From Escherichia coli (GTDB taxonomy: Bacteria > Pseudomonadota > Gammaproteobacteria > Enterobacterales > Enterobacteriaceae): a stretch of DNA of 64,000 bases. How positions within the stretch are numbered: the first letter of the stretch is position 1; each line of letters starts with the position of its first letter. The stretch is from assembly GCF_002854065.1 (NCBI RefSeq), contig NZ_CP024151.1; one strand, written 5' to 3'. A model generated the notes under the pieces. The model was not told the origin of the DNA and did not search any database. It saw nothing but the letters and a program-made list of their open reading frames with translations. The position numbers and the translations under genes were made by a program. Below, one piece after another: positions 7,900 through 53,825 of the stretch.

Positions 7900-8174
7900 T
7901 TAAAAGATACATTGCACCCTGTAAGGCTGGCGGATGGCGCTTTATGACATGAACGGTTGTAACCTTATGGGGAAGTCCCTTGCAGTTAAATGTGGATAAG
8001 CAAAATTCCTCGTCTGTGAGGCGTGTTTTGTATCAAAAACAGGAGGGACCGGATGCACCTGAAGGTGGATGATGAGGTTGTTTTTTGTATGCGGTGCTGT
8101 TTTTTTGTTCGCCGACAGGCTTCAGGCGTGCAGATGCCTCCGGTGCGGGCCGGATTATTCAGAGGAGGTCACTT
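7900..8174 (-). other. RepFIIA-type origin of replication (oriR) region, approximate
   Basis: Immediately downstream of repA1; DnaA box TGTGGATAA at about 7991-7999; AT-rich stretch. Confidence 0.5.
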
Positions 8175-9032
8175 TCAGGGGGAAGCTGTGGCCAGCCGGC
8201 TGTAATTACGGTTACGTGACAGAATCATGCGCTCTTTCACACGACGCTCCACTTCGCGTTTTACCGCCTCACGATTGGCAGTGAAGCGCCCTTCCGAGAT
8301 TTCACGCGTCAGCTGCCGTTTCACCAGGGTGACGATATCCTGACGTTCCCTGTTCGCATCACGACGCGCACGGGCACGCTTTATTCCACGGGACTTAAGC
8401 TCTGTCTGGTAACTGCGGAAACGCTCACGCACAAAACGCCAGGCTTTCGCTATCAGTTCATCCATACCCAGGGTATCCAGTCCCTGCTTTTTGCGCTGTC
8501 TGTTTTCCCATTCAACACGACTGCGGCGCGCAGCAACTACTGCATCCTCAGACACATCAAGGGCGGCAAATAGCGCCGGTGTGAACGTGATATCGGTCGG
8601 AATGTAGCACCCGATAAGCGGATCATATTCCGTCTGGTAGGTAATCAGTCCCAGCTCTGCAAGGAACGTCAAGGCTCGGGTGGCCCGGGTGATGGAGAGT
8701 TTTCCGGCAGCAGACTCCGTCGCCAGTCCGCACTCAATGGCCAGCGTAGTGATGGAGCACTGGACGCGGTTGGCCAGCGGGTCATAGTGAAAACACAGCC
8801 CCTGCAGCAGCGCATCAATAGCCCGGCGACGCAGTACCGGTGGCATGCGCCGACGCAGTCCCTTCGAACGGGCATGTGCCACATGAATGGCGAAATCAAA
8901 ACGGGAGGTGAAGCCCACCGCCTTTTCCATCAGTTTTTCGCAGAACTTCAGCGTTCCGGCACCTTCACGGGGTGTGAACACCGGATTCGGGTTTTTAACC
9001 TGTGAATAGTATTTTTGAAGGAGATCAGCCAT
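8175..9032 (-). CDS. repA1: Replication initiator RepA1 (IncFII)
   Basis: From internal ATG: [56 protein letters not shown]..., near-identical to R100/R1 RepA1. Confidence 0.9.
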
Positions 9033-9108
9033 GTCCCCCTCCAACACTATTCCCCCTCCTACGGGCGGCAACTAGCTCGTCTGGGCCGACACGTAAAGTT
9101 TCGAACAT
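9025..9108 (-). CDS. tap: repA1 leader peptide (tap/repA6-like), translationally coupled
   Basis: 27-codon [30 protein letters not shown] whose stop overlaps the repA1 start codon, the arrangement known for IncFII tap. Confidence 0.45.
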
Positions 9109-9805
9109 ATCTGGTCTGAACCAGATGGTTCCTCCATCAAAAGCGATGAGATGAAGATCATTATCAAGAGTTTTGAGGGCTCTCCAAACACGAGTGTATG
9201 AACCTCCACTACAAACTGAAAGCTCTTTAACAGATAAGTTAACTTTGTTCGTATCAGGGATGTAGTGTGCGCACATTACTTGTACGAGGGAAACATAAAA
9301 ACTAACCATCGACGCGCTGATTTTATTTTTACGTTTGCCATGCGCTATTGCAAGAAAACCTCTGATGAAGATCAGATGCTTGAAGGAGTCAAAATGAGCC
9401 CTTTTCTGGAGAAGGCAGCAAAACGGGTGAGGATACTTGCTGGAATCAATGTGAAGATCTGATTCAATCCCACCCGCTATTACTGAATGTGTTTCATGAT
9501 TAGCCACACCATCCTGCACTTACAATGCACAGAAGGAGTGAGCACAGAAAGAAGTCTTGAACTTTTCCGGGCATATAACTATACTCCCCGCATAGCTGAA
9601 TTGTTGGCTATGCGGTTTTATGGGGCCCCGGTAATCTTTCTAGTCGCCAAACTTGAAGAAGATTATCGGGGTTTTCGCTTTTCTGGCTCCTGTAAATCCA
9701 CATCAGAACCAGTTCCCTGCCACCTTACGGCGTGGCCAGCCACAAAATTCCTTAAACGATCAGCAATCTACCACTCACTCCTGAGATAAGCAAGAATGTG
9801 AATAT

Positions 9806-10063
9806 TTACGAAGTCGCTCTGCGTTTCAACTCTGATTCAATCAGTTTTTCAAGCATCTGCGCCTGAGTAATACCTTCCTCATCCGCAAGTTCACTCAGCC
9901 TGTCTTTTAACCGGGCCTGAATAACCGCATGAAAAGCCTTATGAGTGTTGCTTCTGCGAGCCAGAGAAGCTCTTTGCCTCTCTCTGGCCGGAACAGGGTT
10001 ACCTTTCCGGTATGTACGCTTGGTGCCTGATGAGGAAGTCACTGCATTTTCTGTCTGCGACAT
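9806..10063 (-). CDS. copB: Copy-number control repressor CopB (RepA2)
   Basis: [11 protein letters not shown]...[17 protein letters not shown] resembles R100 RepA2/CopB. Confidence 0.85.
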
Positions 10064-10178: not shown

Positions 10179-10529
10179 TTACGACCGTTTAATGTGATTT
10201 TGATAATGAAATGACTGAAAAGCTGGAAATGCCTTAGCCAGGGTGCCGGCCCCGGGCGGGACCGGCTGTTTCTGGTATATAGGATGTCTGCCCCTGAAAT
10301 ACCTCACACTTCCGGAAAGCGGGGACTTCCGTGCTTCGTAGGCCAGAGTTACCTGCACCACTGTATTTCCTCTGTGAATATTCAGCTCACATAACCGTTC
10401 CCTGAATATCAGTGAAAAACACAACACCATGGCGCACACGGCGAGCAACCCGATAAGGGCATATTTCGTCATAAACTTTGACCTCTCTGCAAAGAAGAGG
10501 CTACAATCAGTAGTGTTAAGGTACTTCAT
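10179..10529 (-). CDS. srnB: SrnB/PndA (Hok-family) toxin locus: mok-like leader in frame with toxin; ORF lacks the expected stop
   Basis: MKYLNTTDCSLFFAERSKF-MTKYALIGLLAVCAMVLCFSLIFRERLCELNIHRGNTVVQVTLAYEARK matches SrnB; reading frame continues 48 codons past ...EARK. Confidence 0.7.
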   Translation of the reverse strand: MKYLNTTDCSLFFAERSKFMTKYALIGLLAVCAMVLCFSLIFRERLCELNIHRGNTVVQVTLAYEARKSPLSGSVRYFRGRHPIYQKQPVPPGAGTLAKAFPAFQSFHYQNHIKRS

Positions 10530-11478
10530 GCAGACCTCACGAGTTAATGGATTAACGAGTGGGGTCTTCGCATTTCTGGTACCTGCGTCTTGCCTGAACC
10601 AGAAAGGCTCAGACACCCGCCGCGATAATACCACATTCCCTGTTGCTGGCTATTACCCCCATTTGCCTGTTTTTGTTACAAAAACGCCGGGAGCGGGGGA
10701 AAACTTACTTTTTCCCGTTTCCGGGGGGGACAACTGAGCATTGCGAACGCGTCAGCTACGATGTTCCGGTGATTGCTGATCAGCCCCTGTTGTATTCATA
10801 AACTAATTAACATTCATTCCGTCTGGTGCATAAATCTGCCCGTGAACATCTGCAGACAATACCGACCATAAAAAAATAAATAATCCCAGTAGAATATATT
10901 TCCTCATATTATTATCCATAACAAATAAATGGCACCTGTACACCTGTATTTCAGGCAATCCTGAATATTGCAGCGCACATTGAATAAGACGTTATTTCGT
11001 GACATTAATCACAAAATATAAAATCGCGACTTAATACGGAAAAAACTCTGTGCTACTCAGAACTGACTGGTCATACTGCCCGACCGGATATTAAAAAAGC
11101 AAATCTCATAAACTCCTTTCAGCCTTCTGACTCCTGGAGTAATGAAGGCTGCTTTTTCGTTACACCCTTCCCCGGCAGCGCCGGTAGCAGTGTTCAGCCC
11201 TTTTTCGGGCAAACTGCTGCCAGTCTGTCCGGGGCGCAACACAGGCAGCCCGTCGCCATCCTTCTGCCGCTTCCATCCAGCGTCCACTGACCTCCAGAAT
11301 AACGGCCCGGCTTCCGGCACGCTGCCAGCGCCAGACCTGACCGTTCCGTGAACTGTTTCTGAATCCATTCATCTTTATCACTCCTCTTTAACCCGTCAGT
11401 ATTATGGTGTTAAATAATCTACTGAATTGGCTTCCTTTCGGGTACGGAAGTTTATTTCCTTTTAAGCCTTATTTCCCT

Positions 11479-11507
11479 GCCTCCTCTCTCTGATGGAGGC
11501 TTTTTTT
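11479..11507 (+). terminator. Candidate rho-independent terminator (hairpin plus T7), overlapping finO stop
   Basis: GCCTCC-N10-GGAGGC followed by TTTTTTT on the plus strand; coordinates approximate. Confidence 0.3.
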
Positions 11508-12066
11508 ACTTCTCATCAAGCACGGCCTGAAGTTCTGCCTTTATCCGGTTCTGGCGGCGGATTTTATCCAGACGCTCTGCCGCATACGCTTCCTCCTCCT
11601 GAGAAATATGCTCCGTCACATACCCTTCCGTGTCATACCGGCAGGCACCGGCTTTCATGGCACACAGATAGCTTTCTGAACGGGTGATGGCCTTCAGCGC
11701 CCTGCGCAGTTTTTTATGCGAGAGCGGGATATTCCGCTGCGCCACGTCTTCCAGTAACACGTCCCGGATACCGCAGGCCAGAAGCCGGGGGGTGTCACCG
11801 TCAAATAATCCCGGCCACCAGGGCTTCAGGGTGTTCACGGCTTCATCCAGTGTGGGCAGGTTCAGATAAATGGACAGCGCCTGTCTGGCCTGCGCTTTTT
11901 TTGCCGCCAGCTCTGCCTCCCGAGCCGCTTTCTCCACCAGCTTCTGCTTTTTCACCTTCCATTTTGGTGGCGTGGTGACATTGATGATGGTTTTCCGGTT
12001 GCGGACAGGCGCTGTTCCCTCTGTCTTCCGCTTCAGTGTCAGTACCGGTCGCTTCTGCTCTGTCAT
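11506..12066 (-). CDS. finO: Fertility inhibition protein FinO (intact)
   Basis: 186 aa [17 protein letters not shown]...[16 protein letters not shown], full-length FinO. Confidence 0.95.
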
Positions 12067-12886: not shown

Positions 12887-15800
12887 TCAGTCTCCGCCCA
12901 GGGTTTTCTCTTTCTGCAGGGCACGAACCATATCCCGCTCCATCTGCTGCAGTCGCTCCTGCAGCAGATTTTCCCGGGCAACATCCCGGACCGCTTCCCG
13001 CACCCGTTGTGATTCACGCAGCACACTCTCCGGCAGCGCGGCTTCCCGTTCAGATATGGCAGACCGGTCACGCTCCTGCCCGGCAATCTCCCTGACAGCC
13101 TGCTCTGTTTTGCCATCCGGCAGGTCAGGTTTGTTCTCTGCCATTTTACGGACAATTTCATCCGCACGGCGTTCCGTTTCACGGCGGATGGCCTCTTCAG
13201 CTTGCCGCTGTGCCAGTACCTCTGCCGTGACCGGTTCGCCATTTCCGGCTCCCGGCTGAACGCTGTTGTCCGGGATATCCCCCCACACGCGACCACCGGT
13301 GATGGTACCGGGATTCCACGGACGACCTTCACCGGCGATTCTTACCACCACACCGCTGTCAGGATTATCACGGGCAATCCGGACACCATCCTGCATATTA
13401 TCAGCCAGCAGGCTCTCTCCGTTACGGCTGCCCTGCAGGGCCACGAACTGCGCATCCCCGCTGCCTTTCACCCGGCCTTCACCACTGAAGCCCCGCAGCC
13501 CGTTTCCGTCATCCGTGGTCAGCGGATTCAGCCAGATACCGGCGGACTTGCCGTTACGGTCAAAAGCCGGCAGTGCCACATACGGCTGCGGATATTTGCG
13601 CCCGGGTGCAATAAACCGTGCAGGATTGTCTCCCCCGGCAAGTCCCGCCTGACGGAGAACGGCACGGCCGGCCGCCACGTCCCGCAGCTCCCGCGCCGTA
13701 CTGAACAGCCGCTCTGCATTCATGACCTCCCGGTCCGATTTCGGCTCAAGCACATCGTGGGCAGTTCCTTTCTGTACGGCATTGTTAATGGCATCCGTCC
13801 AGCCCTGACGGTTATCGGTATACACCTGCACATGCTGCTTCATACGCGACAGGGCCACGTAGGCTGACTCAAAGCCGGCCATCTGTTTCCGGCTGCCTTC
13901 CGTACCTTCAAGCGCGATGGCAAAGGTTTCACTTGCCCCCTGCGCACCGTGGGCGGTGATGGCATAGGCCAGGTCAATATGTTGCTCTGCCCGCTCCTGA
14001 CCGGGGCGAATCACCCGGGTCTGCTGTCCGTCCGACAGCGTGACACTGTCACCGGAAACCGCTGTCACCGTCCAGACGCTGTTGGCCACATAACCGCGCT
14101 CCCGGTCACTCTTCGTGAAGCGCATCCGGTCACCGGTTCCCACCCGGATGGTGTCCGGGGTGTACAGTGTGACGCCTTCAGCCACCGCCTCCCGGGGCGA
14201 AATCAGCCGCGTGTTACCTTCAGCATCCTGCAGGGTTATCAGCCCGTCATCCCTGCTGATACCGGCAATCCGGTGATACACATTATCCACCAGGGCAAGT
14301 GCGTCCCGATGTGTCTCCCAGGTGGAGAGACGACGCAGCTCCCCGTCGCGTATATTCGCTGTGTTCAGGACAGGCACCATGACCTGCTCTTTTCCCAGCT
14401 CACCGGCCTTTTCCCGTGCATCATGAATCATGCTGTTCAGCACGCGCCGGTCCTCATTCAGGTGCGTGACAATCAGCGTCTGCTCCCGTGCTTCCGGTGT
14501 TCTGCCGGTATAGTCGCGGACAATGGCTTCATACAGTGTCATGGGGACATCCGGGAAAGCCTCGCCTTTCAGCATCGCCTTCTGCTGCGCTTCTGCCAGT
14601 TTCGCTTCCTGGCTGTGACTGAACTCCATCACGGAGTGCTCCGGTGCCCATGCGCCCTCCAGACGTGGCACCTGAGACGGTTTCACACTCTCAAGCCCGG
14701 ATAGTGCCCTTTCCACATCCCGGTTAATCAGGTTGTATACCGCCTCCCGCAGTTCCGGCGTCTGACGCACAATCTCCTTCATGATGGCCACATCGGCAGC
14801 ACTGCGCGTCTGCTGGAGACGGAAAGGCTGACCGGGCGCGATGGCCTGCAGCTGGTCCGTGTCACCACTGGCCACGGCACGACCGCCACCGGCCGCAATC
14901 AGGGCGTATGCCCGTGCCATGTCGGTATTGCCCACCATTGAGCTCTCATCGAGCAGGAACAGCGTGTTGCTGAAATCCGGCGTTTCTCCGCTGCGCTGCT
15001 GCAGCTGCGTGTCATGCAGAAAAGACGCCAATGTCTGCGCATCCACGCCGGCGCTGCGCATCTCCCCGACCGCACGGTGTGTGGGACCCAGCCCAACGAC
15101 ACGGGGACGCTCACTCTCCGGCAGCATGTTCACGGCTGACATCACCGCCCGGAACTGTGTGGTCTTACCCACACCGGCATAGCCCTGCACCACCGTGAAG
15201 CGGTCGGACGTTTCCAGTATCATGCGGGTGGCGGCGCGCTGTCCTGATGTCAGTTTCTCCATGAGTTCGCCAGGTACTCTCTCCATCAGCGGCGTGACCG
15301 CCTCCTTACCTTCGAGAATATGGCGAAGAATGCTCTTTTCTGCCTCATACGACGCACGGGAAACCAGCAGGCCTGTGCCATAGTCTTTTGCCACATCCAC
15401 ATACAGTAAATCACCCCGTTTTATCTGCGCATCGATTTCCCCTCCCAGTTCAGTAAAACTGGTTCCTTCTGCAGCAAACGACTTCGCCTCTGTCAGCAGG
15501 TCCACCATGCTGAAGGCCAGGTTTTTACTTTCCAGCACAGGAAGGGCCAGATGAATGGCCTGCTGTGCCGGCGTGTGAAGCCCGGCTTTCTGCAGACTGA
15601 TAGCGGTTTCCAGCAATGTCTCACCGGCACGCGCCTTTATCTGCTCAGAAACCACCGTAAAGGAGGGATGGCGGGCAAGTTTTTCCGCAGTACGGGTTTC
15701 ATCCAGTGAGGAATACAGCCGGACATCACGACCGCTGCGGGCCAGACCGTTCAGGGTGGCGTTGTCCATTGCCATCTGTGTGACGGAGGCAAAAACCTTC

Positions 15801-21825: not shown

Positions 21826-24647
21826 AATGGCCCCTTCAATCGTTCTTTCTTATCATCCACCATCTGTTTTAACGCATCTTCAGACGGTGTTGGCATTAAT
21901 TTCTGTCGTTTATTTTCTTCATTATATCTGTTGTTTTGTTGAATTTCTTCCTGTTTGTGATTATTTTTTAACTCTGAATATTGTCTGTCTACAATATTTT
22001 CTTCGCCATGAATACTATTCTGAGTATCTCCGATATTCCCTTTATATTCTGTGACCATATTATCAACCTGATGTTTTACATCATTACGGATATTACTGTC
22101 CTGCGTTCTTTGATCAATAATGGCCTGATGCCCCTGATGGTCAGCAATAATATCCTGGCTGCCACCACCCGAAGGTACGCTCTCCATTCCTTTACCAATA
22201 TCCCCACGGGATTCACGCCAGGCATTATCAACACCAGGCTGCACCTGTTCCTGAACAAAAGACCATGCCATCGCCCGACGGCGTTCTGCAATCTCCGGTG
22301 AACTGGTGTTTGTCAGAATAGCTTCGGCATCCTGCGGTGCGTGTTTCATCACATACTGTGCAAACTGTTGCGACAAATCTTCGCTCATCTGCCCACTCAT
22401 GCTTTCAGTACGGGATGCCATTTCAGCATATTCATGGCTGCGGGTCATATTCGTCGTGTACTGGTCGTAACTCTGTTTCGCTGAGTTCAGGGCTGCAGAC
22501 AACTGGTCCACGCGGGAATCGGCATTATTGTCAGTATGGCTGCCGGATTCACTGACTTTGCGACTGGTAAAGTAATCGCTGGCCTCTTTAAAGTCCTTAC
22601 TGGCTTTAGCATCGATATCATGGCGAGCATCATGGGTAGCCCTGCTGCCACTACTTGCTGAATGTGAGTCATCATCCGTTGCATCCAGGCTCCCCTTAAA
22701 TCCACCTCTGATGCCTACCCCACCACCAACACCAAGAATTTTAGGTTTAACCCCCCATTCAGCATGAGCATCAGCATACATTCCACCAGATAGCCTGGTA
22801 CTTGTTGATGCCAGTTCCTGAGTCGCCTGCTCATTACTGATATTATGCGCCTTCGCATAGCTTTCCACTGCACTGCGCATACGGCTGGCCATCATGGAGT
22901 CCTGAGCACTCATCGTGCTGTCAGCACCACCGGTGACAGAATCACTGCTCCCCCGGTTAGAACCAAACTGACTGAGCGTGTTCCAGGCACTGGCAATACT
23001 GCTGCTGAACCCATGCAGGGCACTTTCTGCTCTGTTCGATGCTTCCCGGGCCATTTCCTGTTGTGCCGCCGCAATCTGACGCGTTGCATTGATGCCGACC
23101 GGTAACCGGGACATCGCTCCGCTTGCATCCATCACCATATTACCGTCACGGGTCTGTGTGGCGGTTGCGCCACTGCCGGTCTGGTACATCATCTGACCAA
23201 ACGACGTGGTGCTGTTGGTGCTCCAGCTGAAGCCGTTAACATTCTCCGTCTGCATGTTGCCGTAGGAGTAATTACCGTCAACCACACTGCCTGCTGCACT
23301 GGCGGTCGGGCTGATAGCAGAGGAAGCGAAATGGCTGTACACACTGGAAAATCCTGCCCCGAGCCCCCTGACCATCATCCAGGATAATGGCGGGATCATC
23401 ATGGAAAGATACCCGGCAGTGGAAGCCAGATCGGAGTATTTCAGCTGTATCTGTGAAATTTCCGAGAGCACCACCGGTGCACCATTCTGCTTTGCATAAA
23501 ATGTCATGGCGCTGTTCAGAATGGCGTACAACATTGGCCATGACTGCAACCACATCAGGGCAAACACATAGCCTTTCAGGACGGACAGCGTCAGTTTGTT
23601 GAAGACAGCCGCCAGTACCAGGAGCGGGAAAATACCGATGGCGATCCCCGTCAGGATGGTCTGCGTCATGGGCAGTGTCCGCATCGCCACATGACCGATG
23701 GAGACATGTGCCAGACGTTGCTTCTCCATCGATGATGTGGTGGCCAGATTCACCAGGCTGGCCGAATCACCATTACGTGCGGCATAACTGGTGATCCCCT
23801 CCTTCAGCGCATTGATGGTGACATTCTGGCGGATGATCTGGCTGGCTGATTTACTTGAGCCATAGAAGTAACTGTAACTGTCGCCAATCAGCGTACTGAA
23901 CAACAGGTTCGGATCAGGGCGTCCACCAAATAGCTGCTGGGCATAATAATGCCATGTTTTTCCGCCACTCTGTGTGTCCAGATTCAGCTTGTCTTTCAGC
24001 GAAACCGACGCGTCCTTACAGGTCACGAAATTATTATTGCTGTCATAAACGCCCCGCAGCGGACTGGGGCGGGAAAAAATCAGCGTGTAAGGATCAGCGG
24101 AGGCCATCAGTTCCTCCAGCGTGTATTTGTGGTTCAGGTAAATATCCCCCATCACGCAGTTCTGCACATAATCCTGGAAAAGATTGGCGATTTCCGGATT
24201 ACGGGACAAAAAGTCGGTGCTTTTTGATACCAGTTCTGCGCCAAACAGCATCCCCGTTTTGCTGTAGGTGACACTGTCCGGTTGCGTGAAGATCATCTCG
24301 TAACTGGCCACCATTGCATGCCCGATACGGGTCGTCAGTGAAAGTGGCATCGCCAGTCCGACCGGCACATTATCCACCCGGTGAACTTTGACCAGGTCAC
24401 TGTTATCAATAATCTGCACCGATGTGCGGACATTAACCAGCAGGCTGATAAGCACAAACACGGCCACCCAGCCCAGCAAATCCATCACGTTGTGCCGCTG
24501 TACCCACATTACGGCCACCGCGAGAACAGACAATGTGAGCGCAATTTTTTCAATGGAATCCCACGTCCGGGTCCCCATAAAGGCGGCAATGGCATTCAGG
24601 TTATTCCGCAACCACTCACCACCGGCAATCACATAAACTTCATTCAC
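21822..24647 (-). CDS. traG: TraG mating pair stabilization / pilus assembly
   Basis: 941 aa MNEVYVIAGGEWLRNNLNAIAAFMGTRTW...; GTG start overlapping traH stop. Confidence 0.95.
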   Translation of the reverse strand: MNEVYVIAGGEWLRNNLNAIAAFMGTRTWDSIEKIALTLSVLAVAVMWVQRHNVMDLLGWVAVFVLISLLVNVRTSVQIIDNSDLVKVHRVDNVPVGLAMPLSLTTRIGHAMVASYEMIFTQPDSVTYSKTGMLFGAELVSKSTDFLSRNPEIANLFQDYVQNCVMGDIYLNHKYTLEELMASADPYTLIFSRPSPLRGVYDSNNNFVTCKDASVSLKDKLNLDTQSGGKTWHYYAQQLFGGRPDPNLLFSTLIGDSYSYFYGSSKSASQIIRQNVTINALKEGITSYAARNGDSASLVNLATTSSMEKQRLAHVSIGHVAMRTLPMTQTILTGIAIGIFPLLVLAAVFNKLTLSVLKGYVFALMWLQSWPMLYAILNSAMTFYAKQNGAPVVLSEISQIQLKYSDLASTAGYLSMMIPPLSWMMVRGLGAGFSSVYSHFASSAISPTASAAGSVVDGNYSYGNMQTENVNGFSWSTNSTTSFGQMMYQTGSGATATQTRDGNMVMDASGAMSRLPVGINATRQIAAAQQEMAREASNRAESALHGFSSSIASAWNTLSQFGSNRGSSDSVTGGADSTMSAQDSMMASRMRSAVESYAKAHNISNEQATQELASTSTRLSGGMYADAHAEWGVKPKILGVGGGVGIRGGFKGSLDATDDDSHSASSGSRATHDARHDIDAKASKDFKEASDYFTSRKVSESGSHTDNNADSRVDQLSAALNSAKQSYDQYTTNMTRSHEYAEMASRTESMSGQMSEDLSQQFAQYVMKHAPQDAEAILTNTSSPEIAERRRAMAWSFVQEQVQPGVDNAWRESRGDIGKGMESVPSGGGSQDIIADHQGHQAIIDQRTQDSNIRNDVKHQVDNMVTEYKGNIGDTQNSIHGEENIVDRQYSELKNNHKQEEIQQNNRYNEENKRQKLMPTPSEDALKQMVDDKKERLKGPL

Positions 24648-41394: not shown

Positions 41395-42081
41395 TTACTT
41401 AACGCTATAAAATTCACGAATTATATTTAATAGCAAATCTATTTTCCCTTTATAGATACATGACACTCTGAATAAATCAAAGTGTTCAAAAAATTCTTTT
41501 ATTTTCCGTTTAACTGGTTTAATTCGATCCTCAGATGCTCTGTCTGTAATACCCAATTCTCTGGCAATTGTTGCATGACCAACACCCAGCATATAAAAAG
41601 AGAAAACAAGCAATGTCCCGGGGGAAAGATCATTCCATATCGTTAATTTATCAGAAGTATTTGTATTACTTCCACTCTGACTTAACGCAAAAAATGGATA
41701 ATCAGGAAACGGATTAATTTGCCATAAAACAACAGATTCGTCATTATAAAAAGAAACATTCTCCATCCTTATCTGATAGATTTCGCCATGAAAATTAAAA
41801 CGACGACAAAATGCAGAGCCATGTCCAAGAGCCTGGCATTCCAATTCAAGTGATGAAAGAAAAATTTCAACCTGCAGACGTATATAACTCTCTCCGGATA
41901 AGGGTTTATCTTCTCTGGAAAAGAGTTCAATAAAAGCCCCATTGGCATAAAGGATTTTCCGGTTTTTGTTACGGACACAAACCGGAACGGGAGAATTTCT
42001 GTAGATATTCTGAACGTTAAGGATGTACTTATTTACAGATTGACTGTTAAGTGGCCTTTCTCTACGATCCAGCGCACACAT
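41395..42081 (-). CDS. traJ: TraJ transcriptional activator of the tra operon
   Basis: Position between traY and traM; start taken at internal ATG ([13 protein letters not shown]...) preceded by GGAGG; 228 aa. Confidence 0.8.
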
Positions 42082-42152
42082 AGGAACCTCCGTTAAGGAT
42101 TCTATGGACAGTCGATGCAGGGAGTTCAGACCTCCCTGCATCGGCGATTTTC
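42072..42152 (+). ncRNA. finP: FinP antisense RNA (approximate bounds)
   Basis: Antisense to traJ leader/RBS; hairpin GATGCAGGGAG-N6-CTCCCTGCATC followed by GCGATTTT on the plus strand. Confidence 0.5.
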
Positions 42153-42271
42153 AGTTTCAATTTTTAACGTGGCATTAACCACGTAATTAATATACTAATT
42201 ATCTGACGTATTGTCATCTTTTTGAATCATAAAAATTCTTATATTTGAACCAACTCAAACTTCATTTTCAT

Positions 42272-46024: not shown

Positions 46025-46183
46025 CTACTTACCGGATTCGTAAGCCATGAAAGCCGCCACCTCCCTGTGTCCGTCTCTGTAACGAATCTCGCACAGCGAT
46101 TTTCGTGTCAGATAAGTGAATATCAACAGTGTGAGACACACGATCAACACACACCAGACAAGGGAACTTCGTGGTAGTTTCAT
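46025..46183 (-). CDS. hok: Hok-family toxin (Hok/FlmA-like), intact
   Basis: [52 protein letters not shown]; 3' UTR GC-rich fold-back region follows. Confidence 0.85.
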
Positions 46184-46241
46184 GGCCTTCTTCTCCTTGC
46201 GCAAAGCGCGGTAAGAGGCTATCCTGATGTGGACTAGACAT
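46029..46241 (-). CDS. mok: Mok/FlmC-like overlapping reading frame
   Basis: 70-codon ORF overlapping hok in the +1 frame. Confidence 0.6.
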
Positions 46242-46462
46242 AGGGATGCCTCGTGGTGGTTAATGAAAATTAACTTACTACGGGGCTATCTTCTTTCTGT
46301 CACACAACACGGCAACAAACCACCTTCACGTCATGAGGCAGAAAGCCTCAAGCGCCGGGCACATCATAGCCCATATACCTGCACGCTGACCACACTCACT
46401 TTCCCTGAAAATAATCCGCTCATTCAGACCGTTCACGGGAAATCCGTGTGATTGTTGCCGCA

Positions 46463-53354: not shown

Positions 53355-53585
53355 TCAGTTAAAAGCGCGTTTCAGTTCGAGTGTGCGGAGCACCTGCCCG
53401 AAGGCCGTGTTTTTCATGGCGGGGATGTGTACACCACGCCCCCGGTGAAAACTCCGGGCAATGTGTCGCCCGAAGGCTTTCAGCACGGGGTCAATTTCCG
53501 GCGCGGGGATGTCTTCGCGTCTGAAACGGGGATGACGGCGGGGCTTTACAGCCGCTGCGGAAGGTGAAACAATACTTACTGTCAT
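53355..53585 (-). CDS. Hypothetical small basic protein (76 aa)
   Basis: ATG with AAGGAG RBS, downstream of repeat copy 3. Confidence 0.45.
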   Translation of the reverse strand: MTVSIVSPSAAAVKPRRHPRFRREDIPAPEIDPVLKAFGRHIARSFHRGRGVHIPAMKNTAFGQVLRTLELKRAFN

Positions 53586-53825
53586 AAATGAAACTCCTTA
53601 TGACAAATTGGTTAACAATGCCGTCAAAATTGGTTGTGCAATTCTTACGGCGTGGATTAAGCAGGTCCCTGACCTGCTTTTTTCATATCTGCGTCTGACG
53701 TTCTACGGTGTTTTCCTCCTTCTGTTCCTGCGTTCTCATTACCTGCCAGCCGGATGACTGACAGAACAAATAAATGCATATTGCCGGAGCCTGAAATAAA
53801 TCCTGATTTTTAAAGAACATCACCC

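Follow-up and report, generated by a model that had tools for sequence, protein, structure and literature searches.

The window, a 64,000-nucleotide stretch of Escherichia coli DNA (contig NZ_CP024151.1), carries on its minus strand a replicon in which copB is followed by tap, an open reading frame of 160 codons (ORF160) and repA1. The copB gene (also repA2; 9806-10063) encodes the 85-aa repressor of the repA promoter, which was assigned to the Pfam family PF10723 RepB-RCR_reg (E=3.1e-31) and is named 'replication regulatory protein RepA' in the annotation of an identical plasmid. The 285-aa initiator is encoded by repA1 (8175-9032, with the ATG at 9032); it matches PF02387 and scores 582 bits against TIGR03474 incFII_RepA (cutoff 447). 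About 180 bp downstream of repA1, a DnaA box found by pattern match, TTATCCACA (7991-7999, minus strand), marks the putative start of the oriR region, and its placement relative to repA matches that in R1 and pEntH10407 (PMC2762410). Identical plasmids are typed IncFIC and, judged by sequence matches that include the origin, the replicon is an otherwise textbook IncFII-type (RepFIC) replicon except for the extra cistron. An earlier note on this DNA had remarked on an unusually long copB-repA1 spacer of about 770 bp. Measured in the window, copB and repA1 lie 773 bp apart; the closest canonical IncFIC replicon (L002, NZ_CP037904), in which tap abuts repA and the flanks are 97.5% identical, has 298 bp here, and the observation is therefore correct. 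The excess of 475 bp is occupied by a single cistron, ORF160.

All the control elements in the spacer are of the textbook R1/R100 kind. A consensus scan detected a PrepA-like sigma-70 promoter (TTGAAA-17-AATATT, 9801-9829, minus strand) at the end of copB, in a position that we take to correspond to PrepA of R1, and no further minus-strand promoter-like site between it and repA1. On the plus strand, the CopA promoter given by the consensus scan (TTGAAC-17-TATACT, 9557-9585) lies directly upstream of the CopA antisense RNA (9592-9680), the minus-strand complement of which is CopT. CopA had escaped detection as a stem-loop by eye, yet Rfam RF00042 matches here over model positions 1-92 of 92 with 93.6 bits (gathering score 60), and this full-length match rules out a missing or non-canonical CopA; the RNA was also found in the six diverged cassette loci (6/6) besides the window. 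A 100-codon plus-strand ORF runs across CopA/CopT (9487-9789), and its equivalents are annotated in some records as 'replication protein RepA' or 'plasmid copy control protein CopA'; these gene calls are probably artefacts of annotation, made on top of the antisense RNA gene.

The tap leader peptide (9500-9574, minus strand, 24 codons) was identified by TIGR03475 tap_IncFII_lead (E=3e-16, above the cutoff) and is also called tap by PGAP. It had been described as the C-terminal end of a 164-codon frame. That frame does exist as the longest open version of ORF160 (9025-9519, minus strand), but tap is a separate ORF read in a different frame, and the only tap-like trait at the 3' end of the long frame is an 8-nt stop/start overlap with repA1. 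The suggestion that copy control departs from the R100/R1 arrangement likewise holds only in one respect, namely the conserved additional cistron between tap and repA1. The CopB, CopA, tap overlap, RepA and oriR DnaA box of an IncFII-type replicon are all present, whereas the direct coupling of tap to repA seen in L002 and in the FII(K) locus L025 is interrupted by the 483 nt of ORF160, so tap is without direct contact with repA1.

ORF160 (9025-9507, minus strand) extends from a GTG start, as called by PGAP, to a TGA stop and is labelled 'hypothetical protein' by PGAP. An 8-nt overlap joins it to each neighbour, at the tap stop through its GTG (GTGGCTAA), with the geometry of tap and repA in canonical replicons, and at the repA1 ATG through its TGA (ATGGCTGA). 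Homologues with 67-82% identity occur in Klebsiella, Salmonella, Citrobacter, Lelliottia and metagenomes, and every locus fetched has the order copB - CopA/tap - ORF159 - repA (285 aa) with identical 8-nt overlaps. As the frame stays open at 159-160 codons, overlaps unchanged, down to 67% protein identity, its conservation is more than chance. The dN/dS of ORF160 is about 0.2-0.48, significantly below 1 (at most 1.4% of bootstrap replicates reach 1), and substitutions fall mostly at third codon positions, with the tightest constraint in codons 61-140, indicating that ORF160 is under purifying selection. The adjacent repA has a lower dN/dS (0.05-0.26), and the first 23 residues of ORF160 look disordered and unconstrained. 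The ORF160 mRNA folds better than 100 of 100 dinucleotide shuffles (z=-2.25), a fold that may add constraint at the nucleotide level and help to explain the low synonymous divergence described below.

The 17.8-kDa product of ORF160 resembles the N-terminal part of the initiator. BLASTP aligned ORF160 residues 73-150 with RepA1 residues 74-170 (34% identity over 98 aa, E=3e-9), three NCBIfam RepA models match the same region weakly, and tblastn aligned residues 26-150 to the RepA of FII(K) plasmids. The scores fall below the curated family cutoffs (TIGR03474, 17.8 bits versus 446.9; NF040977, 13.1 versus 70), and Pfam, PF02387 included, gave no match. The recognition-helix motif S-x-T-R-x-x-R-A-L is common to both proteins. 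A search of PDB sequences with RepA1 found no solved structure; in the AF2 model of RepA1, an N-terminal winged-helix domain is followed by long C-terminal helices (162-281). ORF160 is modelled as a confident fold, the predicted secondary-structure elements of which match those of the RepA1 winged-helix domain one for one and in the same order, and it ends at the equivalent of RepA1 residue ~170, without the C-terminal helices (~162-281). ORF160 thus corresponds to the initiator's DNA-binding domain minus the tail and, according to these alignments and predicted models, is a stand-alone copy of the initiator winged-helix domain, a 'mini-RepA'. The earlier note would have given up its suggestion for a standard copA/copT region with neutral extra bases; this applies by half, since the region is indeed standard but the extra bases encode a RepA paralogue under purifying selection. 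In the available text of a preprint (10.1101/2024.09.03.610885), IncFII_repA is grouped with winged-helix initiators, probably in the class with a single winged-helix domain, and this domain is treated as the core origin-recognition element.

Two natural fusions involving ORF160 were encountered. P0054 (L023 2501-3331, also in L024; three contigs) is an in-frame hybrid of 276 aa that joins ORF160 residues 1-~148, the winged-helix part, to RepA1 from residue ~157 to the end, the winged-helix domain of RepA1 itself being deleted. If P0054 replicates, the ORF160 domain would be able to replace that of RepA1. The hybrid is absent from the best 12 PLSDB matches listed, each of which matches it as two pieces about 500 bp apart. 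P0037, from one contig, is an in-frame Tap-ORF160 fusion of 182 aa annotated as 'RepA leader peptide Tap', which presumably arose by a one-base change at the tap/ORF160 overlap.

Both junctions of ORF160 are predicted to fold into hairpins. The hairpin at the tap junction (9505-9540, minus strand, -14.5 kcal/mol) sequesters both the AGGA Shine-Dalgarno motif and the ORF160 start codon GTG and is the canonical tap/repA hairpin, kept in eight sequences including L002, with a compensatory exchange between UA and CG pairs. The start of ORF160 behind it is weak (GTG or TTG) and lies in the place of the canonical repA start. At the second junction (9015-9044, minus strand, -11.5 kcal/mol), codons 3-6 of repA1 contain CUCCUUC, which pairs with the Shine-Dalgarno sequence GGAGGGGG of the same gene, and the AUG and UGA lie in or beside the loop. 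The inner stem is invariant in 7/7 cassette loci; repA1 starts there with ATG after a GGAGG Shine-Dalgarno motif, the anti-Shine-Dalgarno CUCCUU never varies, and the CTCCTT position is occupied in canonical replicons by CTTCAA (L002) or ATCCTT (FII(K)).

The coupling of tap and repA translation in R1 is well established through the work of Blomberg, Nordström and Wagner, and the layout of the window suggests an extended version of it. CopA would still block the translation of tap. Termination of tap at GTGGCTAA would open the canonical hairpin and allow ribosomes to start on ORF160, as they do on repA in R1, and ribosomes finishing ORF160 at ATGGCTGA would melt the second hairpin, which hides the strong ribosome-binding site of repA1, followed by reinitiation on repA1. 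In such a three-cistron relay RepA1 synthesis would remain under CopA/CopB control, and every round of it would also yield mini-RepA. From the comparative analysis it seems fairly likely that ORF160 is a real, translated cistron in a tap-ORF160-repA1 relay controlled by CopA, where translation and coupling are what we infer. Given the strong ribosome-binding site and ATG of repA1, some CopA-independent initiation may occur. An internal promoter for repA1 was rejected, as the consensus scan found no promoter-like site inside ORF160. A programmed +1 frameshift joining ORF160 to RepA1, of the prfB type with a Shine-Dalgarno sequence and UGA, was also rejected on a reading of the junction, because the P-site codons GGC or GAC are unable to re-pair in the +1 frame.

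A comparable architecture appears elsewhere. Among other short RepA-like proteins retrieved by profile search, N-terminal RepA halves of 176-192 aa are encoded directly upstream of IncL/M-type RepA proteins (NF040977) of 337-339 aa at four loci from Pantoea-type and metagenomic F-like plasmids (L011 3001-4586; L013 3001-4547; L014 3001-4579; L020 2441-4038, the last from a Pantoea agglomerans plasmid). Immediately before the short ORF, L011, L013 and L014 carry the IncL/M pseudoknot element (RF01089, 92-98 bits) as their control region, and the remaining locus has CopA. Where the sequence was read (L011 and L020), a leader peptide lies just upstream of the short RepA, whose start overlaps the leader stop by 8 nt. 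The initiator follows at once: its ATG touches or overlaps the stop of the short ORF and is preceded by a G-rich Shine-Dalgarno sequence. The short proteins are 31-58% identical to one another and their long partners 60-83%, and length and C-terminal domain boundary are kept; this boundary, just after the ...AAR motif, is also where ORF160 ends. The Pantoea-type short protein is 40-44% identical to the N-terminal half of classical RepA1 and only ~30% identical to ORF160, and its gene evolves faster than the long one, the opposite of the ORF160 pattern. By these comparisons the Pantoea-type tandem is an independent parallel, and the architecture of a short RepA before a long one is therefore recurrent.

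The proposed relay has to be weighed against readings in which the ORF160 protein, or its frame, does nothing. ORF160 could be the decayed remnant of an old duplication or recombination of the repA 5' half, with an idle protein, its frame kept open only so that ribosomes can pass from tap to the start of repA1. This would fit the higher dN/dS of ORF160 relative to repA, its unconstrained N- and C-terminal tails, the roughly twofold faster evolution of the Pantoea-type short proteins compared with their long partners, and the fact that nothing varies less than the overlaps and hairpins. Such a reading is nevertheless rather improbable, as dN/dS is significantly below 1 and selection is tightest in the winged-helix core and the recognition helix, the product is modelled as a confident fold, and both short families end at one domain boundary; moreover, 160 codons and a conserved fold are needless for a pure spacer, and canonical replicons function without any. 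That the spacer is neutral or non-coding, or that its true gene is a second antisense RNA or the 22-codon plus-strand ORF (9394-9462) proposed earlier as additional coding potential, is very hard to credit. The ORF does exist in the window with its AAGGAG and ATG, and the ORF160 region folds somewhat better than shuffles; against this, the ATG is kept in 2/7 diverged loci, AAGGAG occurs in the window only and the frame meets an early stop in L006, so that start, Shine-Dalgarno sequence and frame are unconserved and the ORF was rejected as spurious. Neither a plus-strand promoter nor a terminator was seen in the insert, and CopA is the sole Rfam family matching there at E up to 1, whereas the minus-strand frame is conserved with codon-position bias.

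A further reading concerns the persistence of the cassette rather than its role in the relay. The ORF160 cassette could be a module that homologous recombination in the conserved tap and repA 5' flanks carries from one IncFII-family replicon to another. It would persist because replicons that lose it imprecisely no longer express RepA1 and/or because its product acts against related replicons without the cassette, which would confer a competitive or incompatibility advantage. Several comparisons speak for this reading. Across seven diverged loci, ORF160 is the best-conserved segment of the replicon, with a nucleotide identity of 77-92% that exceeds those of repA (58-87%), copA/tap (73-83%) and copB (54-71%), and at synonymous sites it has diverged about 3-4 times less than the repA next to it (dS 0.18-0.64 against 0.7-2.2). 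It is combined with RepA proteins of at least three lineages and with several alleles of CopA, and its 39-45% GC looks foreign next to 55-62% in repA1. Clean presence/absence pairs were found in the FIC background (the window with, and L002 without, the cassette, in near-identical flanks) and in the FII(K) background (L004 with and L025 without). The RepA of L004 is 99% identical to the common canonical FII(K) protein, and in L025 tap abuts repA, as in L002. The first repA1 codons after the cassette in the window (M-A/T-D-L-L-Q..Y-S-Q) are FII(K)-like, not FIC-like. These sequence patterns are most simply read as spread by recombination within the conserved flanks that tap and the repA 5' end provide; RNA-level constraint may contribute to them. 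As an explanation of the locus, the self-maintaining module is still quite unlikely: the copA-tap region is a known recombination hotspot, and the low dS could reflect constraint on the RNA (mRNA folding z=-2.25). A mobile element or insertion sequence was rejected, as no transposase, recombinase or recombinase site, terminal inverted repeats or target-site duplication was found, the sole ORF encodes the winged-helix protein, and the short repeats at the insert ends are the functional start/stop overlap motifs.

If ORF160 is translated in the relay, its product may act in its own right. It is speculated from the sequence that mini-RepA binds RepA-type sites or RepA itself and modulates initiation, most likely as a competitor or negative modulator; since the DNA-reading helix is conserved and the tail is missing, a competitor or modulator at RepA sites is the most economical guess. 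A more specific and rather doubtful proposal is that ORF160 is a trans-acting 'decoy initiator', a DNA-binding domain lacking the effector tail and produced in step with RepA1. It would occupy the RepA sites at oriR, serving either as a second, protein-level negative feedback on the copy number of its own plasmid or as an incompatibility weapon against IncFII/FIC competitors. If true, this would explain the recent spread of the cassette across RepA lineages and the similar, independent Pantoea-type tandem. ORF160 is conserved next to RepA alleles differing by up to dN 0.33, which argues against tight co-evolution with the DNA specificity of RepA.

Comparison with known systems separates the familiar from the new. 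The window shares with R1/R100 (IncFII, RepFIIA) copB, the PrepA-like promoter, CopA, a 24-aa Tap with 8-nt overlap and hairpin, RepA and the DnaA box. What differs is that the tap-coupled cistron is a 160-codon paralogue and that repA1 comes third, where it starts at an ATG of its own and has a new hairpin and a strong Shine-Dalgarno sequence. RepFIC is the replicon of P307 and F, reportedly studied by Saadi, Maas and co-workers between 1984 and 1997; the F plasmid of NCM3722 has the same arrangement as the window, and no text was found that names the intervening ORF as a RepA-domain paralogue or a coupled cistron.

In IncL/M and I-complex plasmids (repB/repY with a pseudoknot), the ribosome-binding site of the initiator opens only when ribosomes translate an upstream ORF whose end lies at the initiator start. 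Known leader peptides are roughly 20-30 aa long and without a folded domain. In contrast to these, ORF160 encodes a conserved protein predicted to fold; with 160 codons, dN/dS below 1 and a confident fold, it falls outside a class of ~20-30 codons in which translation matters and not the product. The short forms of R6K pi and the TrfA-33/44 proteins of RK2 are shortened initiators that modulate initiation and are produced from in-frame internal starts of one gene. Like them, ORF160 would supply a second, shorter initiator-related polypeptide from the same transcript; unlike them, it is a separate upstream paralogous gene, roughly 30% identical to the initiator. Both repA genes of Buchnera pLeu are full-length. 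The available text of the paper on this plasmid (PMC3229713) calls the two RepA-family genes on one IncFII-like replicon unusual and of unknown function, and describes no truncated copy between leader peptide and initiator.

In E. coli, virulence and resistance genes are carried mainly by IncF plasmids, and the copy control of R1/R100 is textbook knowledge. The ORF160 cassette was found in 525 of 5,426 complete E. coli genomes, so that about one in ten has a RepFIC replicon bearing it, and in ~470-530 PLSDB plasmids. If the relay and mini-RepA are functional, models of copy number and incompatibility for these carriers are one component short, the module could be flagged in replicon typing and annotation, and a simple system would be at hand to separate the role of the RepA winged-helix domain from that of the C-terminal helices. 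Nearly all database records list ORF160 as 'hypothetical', and one names it a putative RepA. The literature search, by protein accessions, RepFIC, tap and repA1, found no description of its nature, but the RepFIC papers of 1987-1997 may contain an older one. The carriers include an F plasmid of K-12 and, judged from chicken/APEC sources and the pAPEC-1 paper (PMC2626276), ColV/APEC-type plasmids. In that paper ORF160 is merely an extra ORF common to pAPEC-1 and pAPEC-O1-ColBM.

The whole copB-tap-ORF160-repA unit is intact in the F plasmid of NCM3722 (67.5 kb; L027 307-789). In the K-12 F' plasmid F128 (L018 1501-1774), ORF160 breaks off after its first 274 nt, copB and tap being kept. Together with the IncFIC typing, these copies identify the unit as classical RepFIC sequence. 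If standard F is truncated in the same way as F128, the classical 'interrupted RepFIC' is broken inside ORF160 and not in repA1. Disrupted copies of ORF160 were found in F128 and at IS junctions. None of the nine plasmid records checked carries this replicon alone, all having FIA or FIB as well. In view of this second replicon and the truncated copies, the RepFIC replicon, and hence ORF160, may often be dispensable.

Several other RNA features of F-like plasmids were located in the window by Rfam. Two sok antitoxin RNAs (RF01794) lie on the minus strand at 10460-10618 (94.5 bits) and 46181-46357 (84 bits), and a hok/gef toxin gene is annotated beside the first position in closely related plasmids. 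Antisense RNAs of F-like plasmids were matched on the plus strand, namely AS-pc02 (11080-11263, 177.7 bits), AS-traI (15232-15308), AS-traG (23843-23928) and AS-pc01 (53580-53682). AS-pc02 is situated between the hok/sok locus and a FinO-like gene (11506-12066, minus strand), which is finO by its position in identical plasmids. The FinP antisense RNA and the traJ 5' UTR (42075-42184; RF00107, RF00243) mark the start of the control region of the tra operon.
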